From positions 1 to 39,981 of IMG/VR virus record IMGVR_UViG_3300045988_134362: DNA of 39,981 bases; one strand, written 5' to 3'. Positions within the stretch are counted from its first letter, which is position 1; the number at the start of each line of letters is the position of its first letter. Below are positions 405 to 28,562 of this stretch, in pieces. The notes beneath the pieces are model-generated. The model did no database searches. It saw only the letters and a program-made list of their open reading frames with translations, and was not told the origin of the DNA. Source of the stretch: a virus. Position numbers and translations under genes: made by a program.

Positions 405-641
405 TTAAATCAATGAATTCATGCTGTCCATTTCAACAAGTAGTTTATCTATGGTTGTTTCTTCTATATCATTTCCATACTTATTTATAAATTCTTCTTT
501 ATCATATCCATAATCAACGATAGGATTATATAACGGACTCTTTTTACGTTTAATATATACAACATCATCAAAAGATTTACCGTTATCGATATCATATTTT
601 ATATCTTCTATTAATTCTTCATAGTCATATGATAGGGTCAT
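405..641 (-). CDS. small acidic protein, 78 aa (start moved from 695 to ATG 641)
   Basis: ATG at 641 is preceded by AAAGGAGTGG with 5-nt spacing. The upstream ATG at 695 has no RBS. Product is about 25% Asp/Glu. It lies after the late-operon terminator and has its own promoter. Confidence 0.5.
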   Translation of the reverse strand: MTLSYDYEELIEDIKYDIDNGKSFDDVVYIKRKKSPLYNPIVDYGYDKEEFINKYGNDIEETTIDKLLVEMDSMNSLI

Positions 642-710
642 TTTATCCACTCCTTTATTTAAAGGTACAAAAATAAATGTGTTTTTAAAATACATTTATA
701 CGTTAAAAAT

Positions 711-740
711 ATTATAGCACTATATAATATAGTATGTCAT
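711..740 (-). promoter_or_regulatory. sigma-A-like promoter for the 78-aa gene (aTGACA-18-TGcTATAAT on the minus strand)
   Basis: Read on the reverse complement: -35 ATGACA (735-740), 18-nt spacer, extended -10 TGcTATAAT (711-719). Confidence 0.4.
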
Positions 741-830
741 ATCTCCACTGTTTTGTTAAAAATGGGTGAGATAAAAAATTAATACCACTATTTTACAAAA
801 AACATTGGAAATAAAAACATGAATTTTTCA

Positions 831-865
831 AAAATAAAAAGACCCCCTACAATTAGTAGGGAGTC
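831..865 (-). terminator. rho-independent terminator ending the late operon
   Basis: Stem gaccccctac/gtagggagtc (9 of 10 pairs, 5-nt loop) at 841-865. The A-run 831-840 on the plus strand gives a U-tract after the hairpin on the minus-strand transcript. Confidence 0.6.
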
Positions 866-960
866 TAGTGCCTAGCACGTGCTGCATACTATAGGCGTTT
901 CATTTTGGTGTACTTTGTGTAATACGCTGTACCTCAATCTTTTTATATTATATTATAAAA

Positions 961-1434
961 TTATTTTATAATCAAGCCTACTCCTAACGCTCCTGCAAGT
1001 GCCATATATAAATCACGTTGCCGCTTAATTACCTTTTGTTTGTGTTCCATTTTCTTTATTTCTTGTTTCAACGTCTTCAATGATTCCCTCGATTCGTTTA
1101 ATGCTTTCCTCGTGTCGGCTAATGATTCGTTCGCACTCAGCAATGAGTTTTTGGCTATTCTGATTTGTTCTTGTAATTTCATCAGTTGTTTTTCTTGCTC
1201 CGTTGAGTTGAGATTCAGCATTTGCAATTTCTCTTTGAGCAGTTCGAACTCCTCGCTCTGCTCTATCAATTCCATCTTCAACGCCTGCCATTGCCCGAGT
1301 GGCACTTGTATCATTTCGCCATCGCTCTCCTGCGGAACGTAAAAGGCATCCGCCAATGAATAAGCAGATGAATGAAACGGAAATAACAACGACACCAAGA
1401 TTATTACGCATAAAATCCCTAATTTTTTGCACAT
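961..1434 (-). CDS. membrane-anchored/secreted coiled-coil protein, 157 aa (N-terminal signal or TM, central coiled coil, C-terminal hydrophobic segment)
   Basis: ATG at 1434 with AAAGGAG 5 nt upstream. Product is K/L/E/Q-rich. An alternative overlapping frame (1025..1432, GTG start) also reads protein-like; see rejected list. Confidence 0.45.
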   Translation of the reverse strand: MCKKLGILCVIILVSLLFPFHSSAYSLADAFYVPQESDGEMIQVPLGQWQALKMELIEQSEEFELLKEKLQMLNLNSTEQEKQLMKLQEQIRIAKNSLLSANESLADTRKALNESRESLKTLKQEIKKMEHKQKVIKRQRDLYMALAGALGVGLIIK

Positions 1435-1577
1435 TTAAGCTCCTTTTTTACATAAAAATACCTATTTCCTTAAAAACACGCTTAATAGACCTATATACGC
1501 ATTTTAACGTTTTTGTGACAAATATATCACGACATACTATTAAAATGTGTCTAACCCCTACAATTTTTGGATAACTT

Positions 1578-2114
1578 TTAGTGATTTTGATAAAAAATCG
1601 CGTTTCCTCTTATAATTCGTCCGCCTTCGTCATATTCCCCATCGTTACTCAAAAATTGTAAATCCCATCTACAATCGGGGTCTCCAGAATACAATCCGTA
1701 TCCGTCAATGTCCGCCGCTTCTCCATGTGTCATGACATAGTCTTTAGTAATCGGGAATTCAAACTCATCTGACAAGATAGCTATCATTTGTGCGAGTGAG
1801 TTCATCTGTGCATCGGTCGGCGGATAATCTCCTAAATTACAACCGCCATTTGCATATGCTATAGCATTTTTACAACAACACAATGTAATAGCTATGCTTC
1901 CTGTGTTCCTCATATAGGTTGCATGATTTGGACGTTCTGTAATATCACGGGTCATTTTAATATCTCCGTCGCCGGTGATATTAAAATGATAGTCACTAAA
2001 TGTAGTATCATAGTCACCTGCTGTTACGTGAAGATAAACCATCGGCAAGCCGTATGAATCAACGAATTCTTGTTTGTTTTCTTTCACGTATTGTTTAAAT
2101 GCCTGTATATTCAT
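1578..2114 (-). CDS. endolysin, N-acetylmuramoyl-L-alanine amidase (Amidase_2/PGRP-like), no obvious cell-wall-binding domain
   Basis: Amidase_2-like blocks (VYLHVTAG, MTHGEAADIDGYG, DPDCRWD). ATGA start overlap with the upstream holin gene. Last genes of the structural/lysis operon. Confidence 0.6.
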   Translation of the reverse strand: MNIQAFKQYVKENKQEFVDSYGLPMVYLHVTAGDYDTTFSDYHFNITGDGDIKMTRDITERPNHATYMRNTGSIAITLCCCKNAIAYANGGCNLGDYPPTDAQMNSLAQMIAILSDEFEFPITKDYVMTHGEAADIDGYGLYSGDPDCRWDLQFLSNDGEYDEGGRIIRGNAIFYQNH

Positions 2115-2617
2115 ATCTTCCTTTTCCCTTTCAAAACTTCCACTAAATCATGTACCATTGCAACTCCTGCTTCGTCTAAGTTTTCAACGACTGACAACAT
2201 TTCAGTTGTAGCTAAATAACCTAAAGCGGTTGTAACCATCATCGGTTTAGTGCCGATTTTAACTAAAATAGTATCTACAATAAATGCTCCAAACACTGCT
2301 ATAAAATAAGTAAGCATCTTACTAACAAAATGCTTACGCATCATGTAAGAGTTGATGTATCCTGCTTTTCTAGCAACGTTCATGTTTTTAACACAATCTA
2401 AAAGTGAGGATTCTTTCCCCTCGCTATCTAGATACTTTTTAGTGAGTGCGATCCAACGTGTATATAAATCAAGACAAACCACGATAGAAAACAAAGCACA
2501 CAACATACTATGGTAAACAAGCATTATTACAACTCCAGACCCTATAATCTTAAGTATAAAATTATCCATTAAAGAATTGAAATTCTTCTGTATCTCATTA
2601 AAAATCATATTCCACAT
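2111..2617 (-). CDS. holin (multi-TM, 168 aa)
   Basis: Three or four predicted TM helices. Immediately upstream of the endolysin and translationally coupled to it (ATGA). Confidence 0.55.
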   Translation of the reverse strand: MWNMIFNEIQKNFNSLMDNFILKIIGSGVVIMLVYHSMLCALFSIVVCLDLYTRWIALTKKYLDSEGKESSLLDCVKNMNVARKAGYINSYMMRKHFVSKMLTYFIAVFGAFIVDTILVKIGTKPMMVTTALGYLATTEMLSVVENLDEAGVAMVHDLVEVLKGKRKI

Positions 2618-2730
2618 TATGTTTTATCCGCCTTTTCTGTAATTGGTTTACTTCTAACACACTTTTTATTAGTACATAATCCTGTATTAGGGTCTTCTTT
2701 TCTGTGGCACAAAAAGCAACGTTTAATCAT
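2617..2730 (-). CDS. 37-aa Cys4 zinc-ribbon peptide (MIKRCFLCHRKEDPNTGLCTNKKCVRSKPITEKADKT) coupled to the holin start
   Basis: Not in the ORF track (shorter than 60 aa). ATG 2730 is preceded by GAGAGGAGAA with 7-nt spacing. CxxC-x10-CxxxxC pattern. Stop TAA overlaps the holin ATG (TAATG). Confidence 0.45.
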   Translation of the reverse strand: MIKRCFLCHRKEDPNTGLCTNKKCVRSKPITEKADKT

Positions 2731-3070
2731 TTGTTAATTCTCCTCTCTTTTTCTTATACTCATTTTCCAGTTCTTCTCGTTCTTCTTTAAGCTCATTTAG
2801 TAAATCATTGTCGCCAACAGCTAGAGTTCTTGCCATCTCCGTCTCAATATCTTTTATTTTTTCCCCATATTCTAAATCTAAATCGTGTAACAACTCTTCT
2901 TTATTTTCCTCTTGTTTGACAAATTTTCCGTCTTTATAAATAAGACCTTGTCTTACTGCTTCTTTTCCTTGTGTATCATCGACTTCAACAATCGTAAACC
3001 CACCAGGGATAGCAAAACGCTCTACATATTCCATACATCTTCCGTTAGTTTCACACACTAATATTTTCAT
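2723..3070 (-). CDS. hypothetical virion/tail-associated protein (115 aa from ATG 3070)
   Basis: ATGA overlap with the upstream ORF stop and a GGTGGA-type RBS. The ATG at 3085 has no usable RBS. Confidence 0.4.
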   Translation of the reverse strand: MKILVCETNGRCMEYVERFAIPGGFTIVEVDDTQGKEAVRQGLIYKDGKFVKQEENKEELLHDLDLEYGEKIKDIETEMARTLAVGDNDLLNELKEEREELENEYKKKRGELTND

Positions 3071-3525
3071 GCTTTCCACCCCCATATTCCTTTTACATAC
3101 ATCTTAGTCCACGAATGTACCCAGCGAGTAGTTGTCGATTTATTACTGATAATCTTCATGTAATAACAAGGATAAACTATGCATTTTTTATTGTCTAGAA
3201 TCGCTTTTGTTAACGCTTGATAAAGCACATGTGAGTCTAATCGTGCATATCCTATTTCACCTGAATCACCATCAGAAAAACATAAAAATAAATAATCAAA
3301 ATCTGTAAAAGGTTTAGACAGTTCAATCGTTTCAGTCCACGCACCTCTACCACCATTAAAACTATCTCCGTTAAATATCTGCTCACAATTATCTATCGTT
3401 ATTGGTTTTTCCTTGATTAAACATAATGTTTCTGACGGGATTTCATGTTTATATCGGTCATATACTTCAGTATTTTCAAATGTAGCAATGATAGTTTTAT
3501 CTTTTTGTATAACTTGTTTTCCCAT
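3067..3525 (-). CDS. hypothetical tail-associated protein (152 aa)
   Basis: AAGGAG RBS 9 nt upstream. TAATG coupling with the previous gene. Lies in the tail-fibre region. Confidence 0.45.
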   Translation of the reverse strand: MGKQVIQKDKTIIATFENTEVYDRYKHEIPSETLCLIKEKPITIDNCEQIFNGDSFNGGRGAWTETIELSKPFTDFDYLFLCFSDGDSGEIGYARLDSHVLYQALTKAILDNKKCIVYPCYYMKIISNKSTTTRWVHSWTKMYVKGIWGWKA

Positions 3526-5588: not shown

Positions 5589-8500
5589 CTATTTTATCTC
5601 TTCCCTTTTCCTGCTATTTCGTTTCTTATTTTTATCTCCTTTCTTTTTTATTTTTCTATCTAAAACTATAGCCGTTAGTGTCTCAAGTAAGCTTGAATCC
5701 GTATCTTGAGACAAATAACGTATAGCAGAAAACAACCCATCAGTAGCTGTATCAGATATCCCCATTAGTCTTGTTCCTAACTTGGTTACCTCTTGTGCTA
5801 CATCTAAACTGTCCTTTTTCTCAGACTGATAAGTTCTTAGTATTGCTACTATTTGCGAGGCAAAGTTAAACGCAGGTATATCGGGGGCTCCGTCATCTGT
5901 ATAACCAAATCCTTTAATACCAGTCTCCATAAGAGCGGGCACAAGGGTTCTAAGTACAGGGTCACCGCCTACCACGTTACCAGTAATAATTGCTTGTAAT
6001 ACGCTTTCTTGCCAGTCGTCATCACTTCCGACCGCTTTTTTAACTGCATATCGTATTGAGCCTTCCAATGATCCTTGAAGAAGTCCTAAGAACAATACAT
6101 CACGAATAAGCGGTCGCTTGTTTCCTGTATCTTTAAGTAAGTAACGGTCTTTTATAAAGTGATTTAAAATCATGTTGTTAAATGTGTAGAAAGGCAGCAA
6201 ATGTCTTAAAAATTTTTGTTTAAGAATATCAGGTCTGTCTTTCATCTCACCACTGCCAAAACACTCTCTAACGCTCTTGTCGCCTGCTTCTATTGCTCTT
6301 TGTTCAATTACTGCAGGGTCCGTTATCCCCTCTACCATTAAACGATTTCTTGTTTCCTTATAAGTTTCAAGCCACAACGGCAAAGAGAATATAAGGTCAG
6401 TTTCAGATATAAAGGTAAAAGCATATTGATTTAGCGTGTCCAAACTTACTTTCCCATGCTTAACCCTAGATATAATCTCGTTTTCTCCTTGAGAAACGGG
6501 AAGTTCTACCCCTCGTGCTAAATCTTTATCCATCGTGGTTATACGGTCTTTCATCATAGAGGATTTTTCCATAATAAACCGTCTGTTAGCAAGCCTGTTT
6601 TCTGTCCACTCTTTAACATTTCCGCCTGTTAAATAATAGTTAGAAATGGCTTTTAGTGTCCACATGCCGCCTTTTTTACCCCATAAGATGGCGATATTAC
6701 AAGCGTTAAGAAGTGCCGTACTAGTTCTATAAGCCAGTATAGCTTGTACATAATTCTTGCGTGCTGTATCTAAGAATCTTTCGACGATTCCTGCGTTATC
6801 AATCGGCGCACTCCAGTTATCTCCTGCCCATGTTTTAAGAGTTCTATACCAATCAAACCCATACTTAGAAGATATTGCCGTTGACACTTCTTTATTGGCA
6901 AGAAGTCTATAAACGTCAATTGCACATTCTCTCATAGAGATAAAGTGTACGGTATCTAAGATGTGATTTCTGTAAACTTCCAGATCCATTCTTAAAGCCT
7001 GTCCACCGCTCCCATTTGAACGCTGTTTAGTCATTCCTGTACCAATACCAAACGTGCTATAACCTGACATCTGTTTTTTAAGGATTTCATTATTGGCTTG
7101 TTCTTCCGCTCTTATAGATGTTTCCGTATCGTATTTAATCGGATAATACATCCCGTTTATTACACGTCCGTTATTTAAGGTAAATTCTTGCCCTTTTACC
7201 TTACCTAAAGGAATACCGTATAAATTGTCATAAACCTTGTTTAAATCTCCATAATAGGAATCAATATCTTTCCAGACGGATTCCACAAAATCCCAATCTC
7301 TATTGGTCATCTTCTCGTTAAGGATATCCAGTATAAAGTCGCTGTCCATTTGATAGGTTTCCATAACTCTATCGCGGTTACTTTCCGTACCCCAGTTAAG
7401 GGCGATTGTGAGCAGTGTTTCTTTTGTTACCATGCGAGGGTTGCCTTTATAATCAAACCCCAATTGGATATTCTTTTTAGAGCGGATATCTCGCCATTCA
7501 TCAAGCGTGTATTTATTAAAAATATCTTGCATACGCTTAGCGGCTTTATTCATCATCTCTCGTTCTTTAGATGCTCCACGTTCTATAGGTTTATAAATAT
7601 ATTCATAAGCAGATTCCCCCATTCTTTCAATCATGACTTCTGGCAAGGTGATAGAGTTTAAATACGATTGAGCCATTTCTTTTAATCCGTCAAATGTCCT
7701 TTTTGCAAGTTTTCTATCAACTGCATTAACAACGGGTGCGTTGATTTCTGTAACGATATCAGATACCGCCTGCTCCATTGATACAACCTTGCCCTCTATG
7801 GTTTTAAAAGACATACCATCATATTCACGTTTACCTAAATGATATATTGCCTTAATAGCTTTTATAAGCTCTCTAAACTCATTCATAGTGAGCTTTTTAA
7901 TGGGCTTTTGTTCTGGACTTTCAAAAATACTTCTTAGCCACGGGGCTATAACATCTTCCCCTTCATAAGGCTTGCCGTCCATCTTATTGGCGTTAGTCCG
8001 TTCTACTTCCATTGCCCTTGTCGGGTTTAAGTCATAGGCAAGATTTGCCCAAGAAAATGGTACTTGCACCCCGTTTTTATCTATCGGAAGCATTCCATCG
8101 GCATTAGTAAGTCCTAATTGATAGGCTAAATGCTGTACAAAATATCTGGCATTGCTAGACATCTTAATTGGGCTTGTAATACGTCCTACACGATTTATTA
8201 AACCGTTTAATCCGTATTTTTCAAGTCCGTCTTTGTTGTAAACATTACTTGCTTCTTTCGGATTTCCATGTAAAGCCTGTCTGATTTCTGCTTCATTCTT
8301 ATAGGCAATACGAGCCTTTAAAGCACACTTTCGCCCTTCGTTTATCCAGTAACTGGCATTTGCCCAATTACCTTTACGGATTTCTCTTGTGGCACTGGTG
8401 GTTACGCTCTTTTGTCTATTGTTCCAGTATTTCCAGTTAGTCGCCTTAGAAATGTTTTGTTTAGACATAGAGTTAATAATACTTTCTTCTAACTGTCTTA

Positions 8501-24186: not shown

Positions 24187-25623
24187 TTAAAAAATGCTGT
24201 ACTCTGTATTGGTCATATGTTGCACTTTCCCGTATTTGTTCAGCGAGCGTGCAACTGGCACGGCAAAGGTTAAAGCTAAAGCATCGCCATCGTTTGGTGA
24301 TGGTATCCCTTTTTTCTTCATATACTCCTTGCTCTGTAACTGCAACTTGCCGTCAAGTGTCGGTTTTATCTCAACACCCGTTAAATCATCTTGGATTGAT
24401 TGCTCATCTGGTAACGCACCACCTTGTTTTAGCCATTTCAATATTTCTTTCCACATATACGAACGCATGTTCGTGCAGTCAATAACTGGCGGTTTAGCGG
24501 CAAAAGAGATAAGATTCCAATTTCGCCCCATCGTTACGCCTGCGGAATATATCCCCGTGCCGTATCCCATATCGATATTGACCGCCGCCGCTTTATACTC
24601 GTCCTCAAACCGACATAGCATGTTAGCTATGGTTAAGTCGTTGTCGTTTTTTGGAATTTTAGCCAAGCGTTTGGCACAAAGCCCCTGCCTCATCCATATG
24701 GACAAGTAGTCGTCTCCGCTCCACGCAGGGTCACACCCTATAACAACTGGTGCAAAGTCGTACATATACGGCTGTAGTTTCTTTTTTCTTGATTCCTCGA
24801 CTAATGAGGTCGGGATAAGCTGATTAGTCCCCGACTGCGGAAATTGCCCCATAACACGGACCCTGAAAAAGTCAGAGTCTTCCCCGTACATCTCCTGCCA
24901 TTGCTCTATCGTCGCTTTGTTTGAGAGTGGAACATCTCTTGAGTCTACTTGTTGTAACTTCCAAAATTTTCTGTATTTATGAAAGCAATCAAAAAACCGA
25001 CCCGTGTTTCTTGTCGGGTTACCAAATACCGACCATATTATCTCGGTGTTATCGTCTGTCATAGCACCTTCAGCGACCTCCCAAATACGGTTGTCGATAC
25101 TTGACGCCTCATCAAATATTAAAAGTATGCGATTGCCTTGATTATGTAGCCCTGCAAAAGCTTCGGGGTTGTCTTTACTCCAGGGGATAGCATCTATCCG
25201 CCAAGTTTTCTCCTTACCGTTTTGTGCAGAAAAAATAGAGGTGGCGGTAATTTTAAACAGGTCTTTGCCGATAAACAAACTATACCATTTACTAAGCTCC
25301 GCCCACGTTTTGGTTATCAGCTGCGTTTCTGTGTTTGCCGTTACTATCCCTCTTGTATCCTCTCTTGTGGATATAGCCCACAAAACAAGCCACGCAACGA
25401 GTGCCGACTTTCCGATCCCGTGTCCACTGGCTACAGCAGTACGGATAACATCGCCCGCGCTTTTAAAACCATCTCTTATAGCTTTTAACTCTTTTACTTG
25501 CCATTCTGACGGGGTTTTGCCCTCGAGACTGCCATCACCCCATGAAAAAGCAAAGTAAACAAAGCGAAAAGGGTCGTGAGTAAACCGAGCCAATGCATTA
25601 ATAACATCAACGTTACTCATCAT
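24187..25623 (-). CDS. terL: terminase large subunit
   Basis: Walker A (VASGHGIGKSALVAWLV), Walker B (ILLIFDEAS), RNaseH-like nuclease Asp motifs (VIGCDPAWSGDDY, NDGDALALTFA). Confidence 0.9.
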   Translation of the reverse strand: MMSNVDVINALARFTHDPFRFVYFAFSWGDGSLEGKTPSEWQVKELKAIRDGFKSAGDVIRTAVASGHGIGKSALVAWLVLWAISTREDTRGIVTANTETQLITKTWAELSKWYSLFIGKDLFKITATSIFSAQNGKEKTWRIDAIPWSKDNPEAFAGLHNQGNRILLIFDEASSIDNRIWEVAEGAMTDDNTEIIWSVFGNPTRNTGRFFDCFHKYRKFWKLQQVDSRDVPLSNKATIEQWQEMYGEDSDFFRVRVMGQFPQSGTNQLIPTSLVEESRKKKLQPYMYDFAPVVIGCDPAWSGDDYLSIWMRQGLCAKRLAKIPKNDNDLTIANMLCRFEDEYKAAAVNIDMGYGTGIYSAGVTMGRNWNLISFAAKPPVIDCTNMRSYMWKEILKWLKQGGALPDEQSIQDDLTGVEIKPTLDGKLQLQSKEYMKKKGIPSPNDGDALALTFAVPVARSLNKYGKVQHMTNTEYSIF

Positions 25624-26098
25624 TTAACTCCTCTAGCCGTTTGCGAGCTTTAGCGAGCACGTCAGCAATGTTAATATTGCCATCAACGTCCAGTTTACTT
25701 TTGTTACTCCACTCATCTGGTCTGCGATTGTTTAACCAGTAAATCAACGCAGCGGTGTTTGGTGGCTCTTGTTTGTGAGTGACAGTAATCTCTTTTGTTG
25801 ATTTTCCCTCGTTGTCCACTCCATCAGCGTTAACGACGTACTCCTCTCTTATTTCTTTGCAAGAATAACCAAGAGCACGTTTATAAAGTGCGTTGACTAT
25901 CTCTTTGTCGGCAATCTCTTTACCTTTTTTAATTGCGTCTGAAAATTCGGGGTAAACTTTTATCCACTCATACAAAGTACTTTTATTTATTCCCATTTTT
26001 TCTGCAATTTGACAGTCAAACAAACCATCTTTTGCCCATTTAGTCACTTTTGCTAAATTATCCTCTTTTAGCCAGTATTTGTACTTTCCGTTATTCAT
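25613..26098 (-). CDS. terS: terminase small subunit (HTH, P27/Terminase_4-like)
   Basis: N-terminal HTH (CQIAEKMGINKSTLYEWI), PPNTAALIYWLNNRRPDEW motif. Overlaps the terL start. AAAGGAGAG RBS. Confidence 0.8.
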   Translation of the reverse strand: MNNGKYKYWLKEDNLAKVTKWAKDGLFDCQIAEKMGINKSTLYEWIKVYPEFSDAIKKGKEIADKEIVNALYKRALGYSCKEIREEYVVNADGVDNEGKSTKEITVTHKQEPPNTAALIYWLNNRRPDEWSNKSKLDVDGNINIADVLAKARKRLEELNDE

Positions 26099-26137
26099 TT
26101 ATTTACTCTCCTTTCTTTTAAATTTTGACAACAAAAA

Positions 26138-26164
26138 AGACAAACGCTGTTTAAACGCTCGTCT
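26138..26164 (-). terminator. hairpin plus U-tract in the 5' leader of the late operon (between late promoter and terS RBS); candidate attenuator or antitermination site
   Basis: Minus-strand transcript: AGACGAGCGUUU-AAAC-AGCGUUUGUCU followed by UUUUUUGUUG, about 30 nt before the terS RBS. Confidence 0.4.
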
Positions 26165-26195
26165 TACTCAATTTTATCGATTCTTTTACAAATAC

Positions 26196-26224
26196 ATTAT
26201 ACCATTTTTTAAATTCCAAATCAA
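26196..26224 (-). promoter_or_regulatory. late-operon promoter TTGATT-17-TGgTATAAT (minus strand)
   Basis: Reverse complement of 26196-26224 gives -35 TTGATT, a 17-nt spacer and an extended -10 TGGTATAAT. Confidence 0.5.
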
Positions 26225-26289
26225 TTTTTATTATAACTTTTGTTTATAACTAACCTACTTGATATAAATTTCTTTTATAACTAAAACCC

Positions 26290-26318
26290 TTGACTTGTTG
26301 TATCTTTTAAGCTACAAT
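26290..26318 (+). promoter_or_regulatory. consensus sigma-A promoter TTGACT-17-TACAAT driving the plus-strand cassette
   Basis: Read directly. Followed by a leader of about 50 nt and AAAGGAG 9 nt before ATG 26376. Divergent from the late promoter about 65 bp away. Confidence 0.55.
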
Positions 26319-26375
26319 ATATACATAAGGTTAAGGGAGCAATAAACTCTCGGTTGTAAAAAAAGGAGTAAAAAA

Positions 26376-26642
26376 ATGAGAAAGAACTACTATTTAATTT
26401 CAGAACAAAGCAACAATACCAATCTTTTGTGTAAAGTGGTGCACGGGAGAAAAGAAGCTATCAAAGATGCACAAATGCATTTTGACCACTTTACAAATCA
26501 AAACAACAAGCAATTAGATATTATTAAATTAAACGTTAACAAAGACGCAGAAGATATTTCAGAAGAAATAGAAAGAGCCATTGAAGAGACTTTTGACTAT
26601 GGCTATACCCCAATATATACGATAGGTGAGTTTAACGGATAA
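26376..26642 (+). CDS. cassette gene 1, hypothetical 88-aa protein
   Basis: ORF with AAAGGAG RBS. Noticeably more AT-rich than the structural genes. Confidence 0.5.
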   Translation: MRKNYYLISEQSNNTNLLCKVVHGRKEAIKDAQMHFDHFTNQNNKQLDIIKLNVNKDAEDISEEIERAIEETFDYGYTPIYTIGEFNG

Positions 26643-26694
26643 TCCATAAAAAAGATTTGATAATTTAATTAATTAAAAAAAGGAGATTAAAAAA

Positions 26695-27207
26695 ATGAAA
26701 AACTTAGAAATGCAAAGAGAAAAAATTGAGGAATTAATGAATAAGCACTGGGAATATTATTTTAACCAGATGTGCAAAGAGTTATATAATATGGGAATTT
26801 CAGTTTCCGAACAACTTTCGGAAATAAATCCAATTTGTGAAATTTATAACAATTGCTTTGAGATTTGTTTGCCAAAGTCAGAACAGTGGAATAAAGAAAA
26901 GTACTTTGTATTTGTTGATGGAGTCGATTTTGAAAAGTTTTGCGAAGAACAATACTTTAAAATCCCCAAAAATTTAGCGTTAAATGTTAAGTATTCTGAA
27001 GATATTAAAGGTAAAGACTTTAAATATCTCGAACCTCAAACAAACATTAAAAAGATTTGCTCTAACGACCACCATTGTCACGAATTATTAGAAACACTCA
27101 TAGAAAAGCGTATTTATGAAATAATTGACGATCTAGTTGCTAACGCAATTTATCAAACAAACGAAGCTGTTAAATATGATTTTGACGGATCAGGAGAGTG
27201 GAATTAA
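26695..27207 (+). CDS. cassette gene 2, hypothetical 170-aa Cys/His-containing protein (..NPICEIYNNCFEIC.., ..ICSNDHHCH..)
   Basis: AAAGGAG RBS 7 nt upstream of the ATG. Possible metal-binding Cys/His clusters. Confidence 0.5.
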   Translation: MKNLEMQREKIEELMNKHWEYYFNQMCKELYNMGISVSEQLSEINPICEIYNNCFEICLPKSEQWNKEKYFVFVDGVDFEKFCEEQYFKIPKNLALNVKYSEDIKGKDFKYLEPQTNIKKICSNDHHCHELLETLIEKRIYEIIDDLVANAIYQTNEAVKYDFDGSGEWN

Positions 27208-27416
27208 TGGATAACCCACTAAAAAAAATAATGACCACAAAAGAGGCGGCGGATGTATACGCCGTCTCCCACTCCACTATTAAACAATGGTGTAACGGAG
27301 TTACTAAACAGGGGGTGTATTATCCCCCTAAGTTTAGTAAAAACGAATGTCGCAAAAGTGCTAGTACGTGGTTAATTACAGTTAATGCTTTAGATAAAAT
27401 ATTTAAAAAGAAATAA
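27198..27416 (+). CDS. cassette gene 3, excisionase/AlpA-family HTH DNA-binding protein (72 aa)
   Basis: TTKEAADVYAVSHSTIKQWC ... W.I..NALDKIF matches the HTH_17/excisionase-type fold pattern. Start overlaps gene 2 end. Confidence 0.5.
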   Translation: MELMDNPLKKIMTTKEAADVYAVSHSTIKQWCNGVTKQGVYYPPKFSKNECRKSASTWLITVNALDKIFKKK

Positions 27417-27428
27417 AGGAGTATATAT

Positions 27429-27953
27429 ATGTTTAATCCATCCGATTTGAAAGAAATCTCAAGAGAAGAAGCCAGAGACTATTGGTTTGCTGATATAGAT
27501 TGTCCAGCGAGAAAAGTTCGTCATGATTGGAATTTTAGTACTAAATTTAGACCAGACTTAAATAAAGAATTTACCCCACAAGAACTCATTGACAAACTAA
27601 AGAAAGAAAAGAGACCAATTATAAACATAGACCGAGAAGTAGAAAAAATTTATAAACATGAACTAGCACATACGTTTATTCACAAATTCGTACATCTTTT
27701 ATTAAAAGAAATATCCTTGATGTCAGAATATCAATTAGAATGGCTGGAAAACAAAGCTATAAAATATACGGGAAACAAAAAGGATCCACAAAGAAGAGAA
27801 AGAACAATTGTAGAATTTGTACAAAGAAATTACAAAGAATTTATAAAAGGAATTTCTTACGATAGCTTATTTTGGGAACCCGTATTTAGCAAAGAACTAA
27901 GTATTATAGCCGACCTTTTAGTCGAAAAACGTCTTTTTGCCCCTGCTTGGTAA
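27429..27953 (+). CDS. cassette gene 4, HExxH zinc-hydrolase-like protein (174 aa; IYKHELAHTFIHKFVH), family undetermined (SprT/YgjP/ImmA-like pattern HELxH...H)
   Basis: AAGGAG RBS. HELAH followed by further His residues. Confidence 0.45.
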   Translation: MFNPSDLKEISREEARDYWFADIDCPARKVRHDWNFSTKFRPDLNKEFTPQELIDKLKKEKRPIINIDREVEKIYKHELAHTFIHKFVHLLLKEISLMSEYQLEWLENKAIKYTGNKKDPQRRERTIVEFVQRNYKEFIKGISYDSLFWEPVFSKELSIIADLLVEKRLFAPAW

Positions 27954-28026
27954 AAGAAATAATCAACCATTGGGAAATCCCCAACAGTTCAAACAGGGCG
28001 ACATAATTAAACAAACAAAAAGAATT

Positions 28027-28058
28027 AGACCACTCAATCAAGAGTGGTCTTTTTATTA
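28027..28058. terminator. bidirectional rho-independent terminator (AGACCACTC-aatcaa-GAGTGGTCT plus T-run) between the cassette and the ArpU-like gene
   Basis: Perfect 9-bp stem read directly. T-run on the plus strand after the stem, T-rich run on the minus strand on the other side. Confidence 0.65.
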
Positions 28059-28562
28059 TCTCAAACATTTATAATACAGTTTTTCAAAATTTATACCGAG
28101 TTCATCAAGCTCCTTTAATGCTTGATTGTGATAATGATAACAACATGATACGGATATTCCTTTTTTGTTTGCTATATCCTTTATGTCCTCGCACAAAAGG
28201 TAACGGCTAAGAAGAATCGACTTACCAATATAACAGGATATCTTATTTACTAGCTTTAACCCCTCAAATAAAAAGGCGGTTGACCTCTCTAAGCTTTTTA
28301 CAATTTCTTTCCGCATCTCGTCAATCTTGGAATTAAACAGAAGCAAAGAATCTGCCACGTCCTTTTTCTCGCCACCCTTAACATGCTCACTATCATATGA
28401 TGTAGCACTAGGATACAAAAGCTCACTATATAACTCATTAATAAATTTTGTGCGTGCTTGCTTATCGTCAATGTTCGACTTTAATTTTAAAAAAGAATTG
28501 GCTTTCTTTTGCTCCTTTAGCACAGTCATTAAAAAAGATTTAGAATCCATTTTACGCATCAA
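28056..28562 (-). CDS. ArpU-family phage late-gene transcriptional regulator (168 aa)
   Basis: C-terminal sigma-70 region-4-like HTH (ILLSRYLLCEDIKDIANKKGISVSCCYHYHNQALKEL). Position is the last gene before the late operon. Confidence 0.6.
   Translation of the reverse strand: MMRKMDSKSFLMTVLKEQKKANSFLKLKSNIDDKQARTKFINELYSELLYPSATSYDSEHVKGGEKKDVADSLLLFNSKIDEMRKEIVKSLERSTAFLFEGLKLVNKISCYIGKSILLSRYLLCEDIKDIANKKGISVSCCYHYHNQALKELDELGINFEKLYYKCLR

Follow-up and report, generated by a model that had tools for sequence, protein, structure and literature searches.

Why does an operon of four plus-strand genes stand between the small terminase gene, terS, and the late activator gene of a Dialister prophage, in the midst of a minus-strand transcription unit? 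All coordinates refer to the window, the whole 39,981-nt stretch of DNA that was analysed. A sequence-only reading had described the block as a cassette inserted at this site, possibly by horizontal acquisition, and had proposed that it could be a defence module. We find that the operon is a long-standing fixture of the ltrB-terS junction in a temperate Dialister phage lineage, and that within its scaffold short orphan genes for soluble, mostly acidic proteins are swapped, inserted and deleted at gene boundaries.

Layout of the block and its flanking genes

The genes of the block, the flanking genes and the elements at the 3' end of the block are listed here.

25613-26098, minus strand: terS, small terminase, first gene of the late operon, left flank (phrog_309, E=1.4e-51)
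26376-26642, plus strand: g1, 88 aa, acidic (pI 5.1), orphan; dN/dS 0.12
26695-27207, plus strand: g2, 170 aa, acidic (pI 4.8), orphan, dispensable; 6 homologue clusters only
27207-27416, plus strand: g3, 69 aa, basic (pI 9.7), HTH_59 DNA-binding protein (PF20038)
27429-27953, plus strand: g4, 174 aa, orphan helical protein with a HELAH motif
27970-27984: 15-nt palindrome TTGGGAAATCCCCAA, directly 3' of the HTH gene or the g4 indel in all variants
28027-28058, both strands: bidirectional intrinsic terminator, common to the cassette and the convergent early operon
28056-28562, minus strand: late activator, DUF1492/LtrB type, last gene of the early operon, right flank

The four plus-strand genes at 26376-27953 lie where the sequence-only reading had placed them, except that g3 more likely starts at ATG 27207 (69 aa) than at GTG 27198 (72 aa). 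Each has a Shine-Dalgarno sequence, and the intergenic gaps are 52, -1 and 12 nt, the stop codon of g2 overlapping the start of g3 as TAATG. All four ORFs are coding genes under constraint (dN/dS 0.11-0.22). They form the sole plus-strand gene block from about 0.4 to 37.6 kb, as had been claimed, and run in the same direction as int, cI and the M78 gene, whereas all lytic genes run the other way. The proposed bidirectional terminator was confirmed: its hairpin (28027-28050, z about -5) has T-runs on both strands, and two compensatory stem changes and a loop inversion were seen in relatives. The palindrome was rejected as a repeated operator, being unique in the window.

The right-flanking gene had been called ArpU-like. 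Its matches to PF07374 (22.2 bits, cut-off 21.5) and phrog_36 (E=2.5e-7) place it instead in the DUF1492/LtrB type, a family that functions in late transcriptional activation (PMC3753634). Meaning had also been attached to the separation of this regulator from the late operon. Since Ltr proteins act in trans and bind direct repeats upstream of terS (PMC3753634), the separation carries no functional weight.

The block belongs to the phage lineage

The GC content of the cassette (0.324) is lower than that of the late genes (0.392 +/- 0.039), as had been noted for the structural genes, but lies within the range of the early genes (0.353 +/- 0.034), and its GC3 (0.304) is not different from that of the rest of the phage (0.319 and 0.325). 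By GC and GC3 the cassette was not distinct from the surrounding phage, and its dS is similar to that of the flanks. The block was found at the same site in all 11 loci with enough flanking sequence (L001-L005, L008, L009, L011-L013 and L033); in the shorter contigs L014-L017, only parts of the same arrangement are visible. It is still there in L033, which has a different terminase, portal and capsid module, and a prophage of Dialister pneumosintes whose packaging and head module differs keeps it at the same site. A metagenome scan with terS yielded one informative locus, arranged like L001, and a scan of genome contigs with the regulator gave no match. The layout is also the same in L026, whose terS and HTH are 35% and 40% identical to those of the window. 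There, a minus-strand regulator gene is followed on the plus strand by three orphans, the HTH_59 gene and a gene for a 181-aa protein, and then by terS on the minus strand.

Presence or absence of the whole unit was not seen among similar relatives; only g2, g4 and a gene for a 239-aa protein vary in this way. Composition, dS and synteny argue that the unit co-evolved with the phage lineage and, judged from sequence, the block is not a recent insertion. Neither the insertion that had been proposed nor a recent horizontal acquisition is therefore upheld. The sequence-only reading had itself named the recurrence of the block at one position in all relatives as an outcome that would speak against it, and for the scaffold this is largely what was found.

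Exchange and loss of the cargo genes

The constant scaffold consists of the promoter, which is of the host sigma-70 type, the 69-aa HTH_59 gene, the small palindrome and the terminator. The rest is variable, and the boundaries of swaps between relatives coincide exactly with gene borders. Slot 1 is occupied by one of two unrelated allele families, g1 or, in other relatives, an acidic protein of 148-152 aa. The slot-1 proteins and g2 have pI values of 4.4-5.1, and the cargo alleles are without transmembrane segments. g2 was lost twice, by a deletion between 10-nt repeats in L001/L009 and by an internal deletion in L015. g4 and its own ribosome-binding site make up a 546-bp indel, which is missing from seven sequenced relatives (L011-L013, L015-L017 and L033). 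It is also missing from L001/L009/L019, in which the unrelated 239-aa gene is added further downstream, at a separate site. The repeats at these borders are as follows.

26730 and 27200: 10-nt repeats GGAATTAATG bounding the g2 deletion of L001/L009
27406-27416, plus strand: left 11-nt direct repeat AAAAGAAATAA flanking the g4 indel
27952-27962, plus strand: right 11-nt direct repeat AAAAGAAATAA flanking the g4 indel

A dedicated mobility mechanism based on these repeats was rejected. Pairs of 10-mer repeats occur at about 2 per kb here and, being common in AT-rich DNA, the flanking repeats are probably mere deletion substrates.

The earlier statement that no product falls in a named family holds for g1, g2 and g4, which had no family match in PHROGs, Pfam or NCBIfam, but not for g3. 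The window had no nucleotide match among INPHARED phages in near or distant modes, and an Rfam search of the region returned nothing above gathering scores. Searches of viral contigs with g2 and with g4 gave no match. Remote homology was found neither between g2 and the 172-aa protein of L027 or the 112-aa protein of L026, nor between g4 and the 181-aa protein of L026. The Cys/His clusters described in g2 are reduced to two invariant residues, C48 and C54, in a comparison of 7 homologues. The HELAH string of g4 had been read as a zinc-hydrolase motif, but it is not invariant: Tyr replaces H77, the first His of the string, in P0002 (overall identity 87%). In P0003, Tyr replaces H89. g4 belongs to 3 clusters among 5.8 billion proteins, and an exhaustive HMM search of 1.84 billion representatives with the g4 alignment retrieved its own cluster only. 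It had no match in Pfam at E<=1, and hence none to Peptidase_M78, nor any in PHROG, PADLOC, NCBIfam or PDB sequences. In PADLOC-DB v2, nothing significant was found for the cassette genes (best, g1 with E=0.0025 and 15 bits), and neither the alternative alleles nor the cargo of L026/L027 scored below E=0.01. No enzyme, nucleotide-binding or membrane domain was recognisable in the cargo, and the AlphaFold models (pLDDT 53 and 38, the latter for g2 with AF2) were too poor to add anything.

The HTH_59 gene is the constant gene

g3 scores 66.3 bits for HTH_59 (gathering cut-off 27, E=2.4e-18), and the match spans positions 1-61 of the 66-position model. It is found in every relative, is the only gene constant across all variants, and has a dN/dS of 0.11. 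The same HTH (84-90% identical) is accompanied by g4, by the unrelated 239-aa protein or by neither. In L027, Geobacillus virus E2 and NIIg3.2, an HTH_59 gene lies amid hypothetical genes in the interval from the late regulator to terS. An acidic protein is encoded immediately 5' of the HTH gene in the window, L026 and L027; no homology was found between these partners across lineages.

The control region between the two promoters

The following elements lie between terS and g1.

26126-26165, minus strand: hairpin with a U-run in the terS leader, terminator- or attenuator-like (z -1.8)
26196-26224, minus strand: candidate late-operon promoter, TTGATT-17-TGnTATAAT, back-to-back with the cassette promoter
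26232-26293: two 31-nt tandem direct repeats with TTATAACT boxes, nearly invariant in 12 relatives
26290-26318, plus strand: cassette promoter, TTGACT-17-TACAAT; 1 match in the window against 0.01 expected

The near-consensus promoter claimed for the cassette is unique in the window; its -35 is invariant among 12 relatives, and its -10 is TACAAT, TATAAT or TGCAAT. The late promoter to which it was said to be back-to-back corresponds to a promoter-like site at 26224-26196, in which TG and TATAAT are invariant across relatives and n is any of the four bases. A third TTATAACT box begins at 26231, and the second copy of the 31-nt repeat overlaps the cassette -35. These repeats are a candidate binding region for the LtrB activator, the HTH_59 protein or both. 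The terS-leader hairpin, about 25 nt before the terS ribosome-binding site, is kept in relatives, with changes that are mostly pair-preserving. The 65-bp divergent control region common to the two promoters is more conserved than the coding flanks. Together, the strong late promoter, the leader hairpin and a divergent operon over the activator repeats suggest extra control of the packaging/lysis operon.

No cI/cro operator motif was shared with the cassette control region, and no inverted repeat conserved across relatives was found over the cassette core promoter. Only a 71% palindrome (26307-26334) overlaps the -10, its left arm not being conserved in L001 or L002. CCCTTGAC and GTTAAGGG, which flank the promoter 35 bp apart, are without covariation.

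Possible functions of the operon

The reading that we prefer, tentatively and somewhat short of calling it probable, is an autonomous accessory operon made of an HTH_59 regulator and exchangeable orphan cargo, possibly for counter-defence. The HTH_59 protein would be the transcriptional governor of the operon, acting on the 65-bp divergent control region; it would feed back on its own promoter like Aca proteins and may affect the late promoter too. The products of g1, g2 and g4 would interact with the host, most likely in counter-defence or host takeover. Since the cassette promoter needs no phage factor, the cargo could be made as soon as the DNA enters the cell, and perhaps in the lysogen as well. 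LtrB binding at the repeats that overlap the cassette -35 may then switch transcription from the cassette to the late operon. Several observations count against this reading. As no cargo protein matches a known defence or anti-defence family in the libraries used, the function is read from architecture alone. That no conserved inverted repeat was found over the core promoter is not what an Aca-like operon would predict, and the dN/dS values are those of ordinary purifying selection and show nothing of an arms race.

HTH_59 genes beside late regulators in distant phages fit a core regulatory role at least as well. HTH_59, perhaps with the acidic upstream partner, might regulate the late promoter or packaging, for example by binding the TTATAACT repeats, much as excisionase-fold proteins of the dual-function Cox/Apl type bind arrays of repeats, to repress or counter activation of the late promoter until LtrB accumulates. 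The remaining genes would then hitch-hike on the one transcription unit of the phage that needs no phage factor. In four or five divergent lineages HTH_59 is encoded in the interval from late regulator to terS, whichever the strand. That it is the only constant gene, that the shared control region exceeds the coding flanks in conservation, and that an acidic protein directly precedes the HTH gene in the window, L026 and L027 all point the same way, and the late promoter, being near-consensus and without a cI operator, needs some other silencing. We nevertheless consider such a late switch somewhat unlikely. In the systems tested, Ltr proteins were the only phage proteins needed to activate terS promoters (PMC3753634). 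The acidic partners are non-homologous, g2 is dispensable, and other HTH_59 genes stand in unrelated contexts. HTH_59 could also recur there because accessory genes find a natural neutral site at the ltr-terS junction. A wider proposal, unlikely when taken as a whole, would join both roles. HTH_59 and its acidic partner would be an unrecognised module that gates the early-to-late switch, sited in many Firmicute/Negativicute phages with terS on one side and the late activator (Ltr or sigma-like) on the other, and the orphan riders would be new counter-defence proteins. The module would act by anti-activation or antitermination, with the near-consensus late promoter and the terS-leader hairpin, and its partners would be mutually unrelated, always very acidic and often directly before HTH_59.

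Lysogenic conversion is a further candidate: a moron expressed from the repressed prophage, in which g1, g2 or g4 protects the lysogen by superinfection exclusion or a new defence. Its orientation with cI, M78 and int, a sigma-70 promoter and terminator of its own, the lack of a cI operator and the differing gene content all fit. We judge it decidedly unlikely, as the earlier idea of a defence module found no PADLOC family for any allele, the products are small and soluble with no recognisable domain of the kinds sought, and defence cargo is usually sporadic whereas this block is universal in its lineage and compositionally native. It is very improbable that g3 is an excisionase or recombination directionality factor, possibly dual-function like Cox/Apl, with unrelated neighbours. 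g3 does match excisionase-named families (phrog_2655, E=2e-12; phrog_1553, E=2e-5) and, weakly, HTH_17; the phage has a tyrosine integrase, which runs off the right end of the window; and in L024 and L025 an HTH_59 gene is directly upstream of an integrase. However, some 11 kb separate g3 from int, the place in the early operon where an excisionase is usually found is already taken by an HTH_17 protein (36245-36547), and a promoter without cI control would destabilise lysogeny. The NCBIfam excisionase domain scored below its cut-off (15.4 against 28.8 bits), and the PHROG names are largely propagated annotation. The sequence-only reading had suggested that g3 and g4 could be a sensor pair of the ImmR/ImmA or CapH/CapP type that gates g1/g2. 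g4 is directly 3' of the HTH gene, and its KHELAHTFIHK locally resembles AHELGHVILHK, which the M78 protein of the phage carries about as far from its N-terminus. The pair is nonetheless extremely improbable, as is a type II toxin-antitoxin, and co-occurrence and domain tests largely refute it: the HTH gene is always kept while g4 is often absent, hhalign gave a probability of 1.8% between g4 and the M78 protein, and g3 is a single domain of 69 aa without room for a cleavable sensor tail. The toxin-antitoxin was rejected on this single-domain HTH, which has no toxin-specific neutralising domain and is not inherited together with g4.

Comparison with known systems

ImmR/ImmA and CapH/CapP resemble the operon in that an HTH gene adjoins a gene with an HExxH-like string. 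They differ in that g4 has no M78/ImmA domain, a motif that is not invariant and a partner that does not require it, and in that the cassette HTH is of a different class, with no associated effector. Morons are autonomous promoter-gene-terminator units in temperate phages. The name moron given in the sequence-only reading suits a cassette that lies between two phage transcription units, runs counter to its neighbours and has a promoter and a terminator of its own, and whose individual genes (g1 alleles, g2, g4 and the 239-aa gene) are present or absent among relatives. It does not suit the unit as a whole, which is universal in the lineage, native in composition and equipped with its own regulator; only the inner cargo is moron-like.

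acr-aca operons are likewise short same-strand operons of small proteins with a strong factor-independent promoter, in which one conserved small HTH gene is joined by variable, mostly acidic orphans swapped among related phages. The operon in the window lies within all short-operon limits that AcaFinder sets for guilt-by-association (same strand, gaps <250 bp, proteins <200 aa, HTH <150 aa; PMC9765179), and the 239-aa allele of L001 exceeds them. Aca11 and Aca13 also target divergent promoter regions (PMC12282945). In contrast, no Acr homologue was identified for the cassette in Pfam, PHROGs or NCBIfam, its excisionase-like HTH_59 is outside the Aca folds described in the papers reviewed, and no conserved inverted repeat overlapping the core promoter, the hallmark of an Aca operator (PMC12658196), was found. 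The cassette also runs antisense to every lytic gene, and its place at the ltr-terS junction is fixed, even in L026. Accessory-gene hotspots with a small HTH regulator are already a familiar theme. If the accessory-operon reading is true, an HTH_59 gene between the late activator and terS would be a positional rule for new host-interaction or counter-defence genes, useful for phages of little-studied anaerobes from mouth and gut, Dialister and other Negativicutes among them, and it would give the uncharacterised HTH_59 family its first functional context.

The junction itself follows the pattern described for Ltr proteins (RinA/ArpU/LtrA-C), in which the DUF1492/LtrB gene closes the early operon and a terminator, direct repeats and a promoter precede terS (PMC3753634). 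In the phages described, ltr and terS are adjacent on the same strand (PMC3753634), whereas here a divergent operon stands between the terminator and the repeats, and the late promoter, which is close to consensus and has an extended -10, has a terminator-like hairpin downstream of it. The late-control region thus departs from the published Ltr paradigm.

Structure of the cassette between terS and ltrB

From ~0.4 to 37.6 kb of the window all genes lie on the minus strand apart from a cassette of four genes between terS and the late activator gene ltrB, and the only other plus-strand content is the lysogeny genes at the right end. The four plus-strand ORFs proposed in the sequence-only reading (26376-26642, g1; 26695-27207, g2; 27198-27416, g3; 27429-27953, g4) were found at these coordinates, each preceded by a Shine-Dalgarno sequence. 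For g3 the most likely start is the ATG at 27207; it shares bases with the g2 stop (TAATG) and yields the 69-aa product that gene callers give in the relatives. The relevant features are as follows.

25613-26098, minus: terS (phrog_309, E=1.4e-51); terL on the same side
within 26126-26224, minus: candidate late promoter, TTGATT-17-TGnTATAAT, near-consensus extended -10, back-to-back with the cassette promoter
26231-26293, between both promoters: tandem pair of 31-nt direct repeats containing TTATAACT boxes
26290-26318, plus: cassette promoter, TTGACT-17-TACAAT
27970-27984: 15-nt palindrome TTGGGAAATCCCCAA, unique in the window
28027-28050, both strands: bidirectional terminator hairpin
28056-28562, minus: ltrB, DUF1492-type regulator (PF07374, 22.2 bits against a cut-off of 21.5; phrog_36, E=2.5e-7)
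36245-36547, minus: HTH_17 protein, coiled-coil tail, located where an excisionase gene usually lies
within 37626-38502, plus: XRE-type repressor, 140 aa, lysogeny module
within 37626-38502, plus: M78 peptidase-like/ImmA-like protein, 150 aa, with HELGH, lysogeny module
~38.9 kb to the window end, plus: tyrosine integrase, running off the end

The near-consensus promoter and bidirectional terminator claimed for the cassette were both borne out. The promoter is the sole such match in the window (0.01 expected), and the terminator has T-runs on both strands and a z-score of about -5 on each when folding of the hairpin was compared with shuffled sequence. Among relatives the terminator stem carries two compensatory pair changes and the loop is inverted in some. 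At 28027-28050 and the homologous site of comparison loci L001, L005 and L011-L017 three versions of the hairpin occur: one has the stem and loop of the window, one combines this stem with the reverse complement of the loop (an inverted hairpin), and one has a stem carrying the two compensatory changes. The palindrome at 27970-27984, of which L012 has a perfect version (TTGGGAAATTCCCAA), is retained by every variant immediately 3' of either the HTH gene or the indel that holds g4; it may form a hairpin at the RNA 3' end or be bound by a protein. A hairpin at 26335-26351, within the 5' UTR of the cassette, reads GGGAG-N7-CTCTC in the window and GGGAG-N7-CTCCC in L002, L008, L012 and L033, a G.U pair becoming G-C; this stem may stabilise the mRNA or have a regulatory role.

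The divergent control region

The flanking regulator, followed by a RusA gene, had been called ArpU-like; it is of the DUF1492 type, and DUF1492 late activators constitute the LtrB family (PMC3753634), which shares a functional superfamily with ArpU. Over the 277 bp between terS and g1 the relatives are about 92% identical, above the neighbouring coding DNA, and 26196-26290 is almost invariant, as are the 31-nt repeats. Three of the five TTATAACT boxes in the whole window lie here (26231, 26244 and 26275), that at 26231 just upstream of the repeats; the repeats of L033 have an additional 12-nt unit. Direct repeats ahead of terS are what Ltr activators bind (PMC3753634), so LtrB is likely to bind at the 31-nt repeats. 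As the second copy runs into the -35 element of the cassette promoter, LtrB bound there would compete with that promoter. The separation of the regulator gene from the late operon, emphasised previously, is no obstacle to activation because Ltr activators act in trans (PMC3753634).

In the late promoter the TG and TATAAT are invariant, and n is any of the four bases across relatives. Directly after it, the terS leader contains a 10-12-bp hairpin with a U-run, ending ~25 nt before the terS ribosome-binding site; this hairpin folds with a z-score of only -1.8 and contains a single A.C mismatch in L002. In lambda PR'-tR' antitermination a strong promoter is followed by a terminator, and the late promoter with its leader hairpin is closer to this arrangement than to an Ltr activator-dependent promoter.

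Cassette products

The claim that none of the four products matches a nameable family held for g1, g2 and g4, which had no match in Pfam, PHROGs, PADLOC or NCBIfam, and not for g3, which is confidently assigned as an HTH_59 protein (PF20038, E=2.4e-18) and is basic (pI 9.7). Only three g4 clusters were found among 5.8 billion proteins, and when 1.84 billion representatives were searched exhaustively by profile, nothing beyond its own cluster came up; for g2 there are six clusters, and the name of one comes from a Dialister pneumosintes MAG. The motifs previously read in these proteins are weak. In g4, H77 of the HELAH string is Tyr in homologue P0002 and H89 is Tyr in homologue P0003, and only two Cys of the g2 Cys/His clusters are invariant among homologues. 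The g1, g2 and alternative first-gene (slot 1) proteins are acidic (pI 4.4-5.1), and no cargo protein has a transmembrane-like segment.

A constant HTH_59 gene with exchangeable cargo

Relatives were collected through terS, g4, g2 and g3. Wherever a relative extends far enough into the flanks, a plus-strand block occupies the same site, which speaks against an insertion into an otherwise uninterrupted unit.

Gene arrangements of the cassette (product sizes in aa)
88 + 170 + HTH + 174: window, L003
88 + 156 + HTH + 174: L004
148 + 170 + HTH + 174: L002, L008
152 + 170 + HTH + 175: L005
148 + HTH + 239: L001, L009, L019
88 + 167 or 169 + HTH, g4 absent: L011, L033
150 + 170 + HTH, g4 absent: L012, L013; L014 (same genes, ends at the HTH gene)
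32-aa g2 remnant + HTH: L015

A constant HTH_59 gene is accompanied by exchangeable orphan cargo: only the promoter/control region, the HTH_59 gene, the 15-nt palindrome and the terminator are constant across variants. Swap borders fall exactly on gene boundaries by blastn. Slot 1 holds either of two mutually unrelated families, and g4 and the 239-aa protein are likewise unrelated. With its ribosome-binding site, g4 is an exact 546-bp indel between copies of the 11-nt repeat AAAAGAAATAA; the 239-aa gene occupies a separate point farther downstream. Loss of g2 in one sub-lineage is a deletion between 10-nt repeats, and L015 has a different, internal deletion. We considered the indel-flanking repeats as a mobility signature and rejected this; because the window DNA contains ~2 short repeat pairs per kb, they are read as deletion substrates.

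L033 is a prophage in the NCBI Dialister pneumosintes MAG GCA_052169535.1, from which the host genus is likely Dialister. It shares the early region, ltrB, the cassette and the control region, and these are joined to a different packaging/head module (Terminase_3, the P22-type portal P22_portal and Phage_capsid_3). The unit thus belongs to the regulatory junction rather than to a particular structural module. The mosaic joint appears to fall within terS or immediately beyond it, with the N-terminal part of terS shared. The window's podovirus-like structural module (Head-tail_con, Bbp16, Bbp19 and GP7 families in the gene calls of L002) has, in its tail region, a single 2453-aa ORF (5589-12950, minus).

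The cassette operon is autonomous and under constraint, and it is an old feature of its lineage. Relative to the homologues, dN/dS was 0.12 for g1, 0.15 for g2, 0.11 for g3 and 0.18 for g4, with 0.08 for terS and 0.09 for ltrB, and cassette dS (0.3-0.6) was comparable with that of the flanks. The reported AT-richness is real relative to late genes (GC 0.324 against 0.392 +/- 0.039); the value is, however, inside the early-gene range (0.353 +/- 0.034), and GC3 is indistinguishable (0.304 against 0.319 and 0.325 for the rest of the phage genes), so composition lends no support to a foreign origin. Recent horizontal acquisition is thus contradicted by native composition, flank-like dS and the shared site in relatives. 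What stands of the proposed self-contained moron is a unit of its own with moron-like cargo of unknown families.

HTH_59 proteins in other phages

An alignment containing a Geobacillus homologue of 34-38% identity retrieved divergent HTH_59 loci. L026 has the same architecture as the window, with terS only 35% and the HTH protein only 40% identical: RusA, DUF5131 and a regulator of phrog_36/DUF1492-like type (all minus) are followed on the plus strand by three orphans (one of pI 4.1), HTH_59 and a 181-aa protein, then by terS and terL (minus). Its large terminase (845 aa; 619-3156, minus) appears by eye to be split by an insert of intein or homing-endonuclease type, and the 181-aa product (phrog_6640) has LAGLIDADG-like strings by eye and no Pfam hit. 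In L027, Geobacillus virus E2 and Parageobacillus phage NIIg3.2, HTH_59 and the hypothetical genes around it share the strand of terS and of the sigma-like or ArpU regulator, between which they lie (PMC10530707). In viral contigs L024 (5001-6518) and L025 (4165-5683) it is directly upstream of a tyrosine integrase (phrog_1). This is the classical xis-int arrangement, so the family probably includes true excisionases as well as junction-associated proteins. No homology of partner proteins was detectable between HTH_59 lineages. HTH_59 is thus an excisionase-like DNA-binding module of general occurrence, found repeatedly at the junction between late regulator and terS.

Function of the cassette

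We propose the HTH_59 protein as the regulator of transcription from the divergent control region that both promoters share; the cargo may comprise host-interaction proteins. The main rival, which is compatible with this accessory-operon reading, makes HTH_59 a core regulator of the late switch, with the cargo as a hitch-hiker; conserved synteny favours it, whereas it is opposed by what is published on Ltr proteins, by the variety of contexts in which HTH_59 occurs and by g2 being dispensable. That g3 serves as the excisionase of this phage is less likely: its gene is far from int, its promoter is without cI control (no cI/cro operator motif was found in common with the terS-g1 control region), and the HTH_17 protein already occupies the usual position.

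A defence or exclusion moron, as suggested from sequence, is also less likely, given small, soluble proteins and no defence-family matches, including none in PADLOC for g1, g2 and g4. The related idea of an ImmR/ImmA or CapH/CapP sensor pair, an HTH protein with an HExxH hydrolase, fails on domain, motif invariance and co-occurrence. Local resemblance between HELAHTFIHK of g4 and HELGHVILHK of the phage's own M78 protein is all that is left, and hhalign gave the two proteins a probability of 1.8%. The XRE-type repressor and M78/ImmA-like protein of the lysogeny module indicate that the phage already has a genuine ImmR/ImmA-like pair elsewhere.

The accessory-operon reading finds its closest parallel in acr-aca operons, whose structural search criteria describe the cassette layout (PMC9765179). 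The cassette may work like an acr-aca locus and is not filed as a member because no homologue of a known Acr or Aca was recognised with Pfam, PHROGs and NCBIfam, and no clearly conserved inverted-repeat operator was recognised over its core promoter, as in aca loci (PMC12658196). An accessory-gene operon with a small HTH regulator is a known theme; what distinguishes this one is its fixed position at the Ltr-terS junction and its orphan content.
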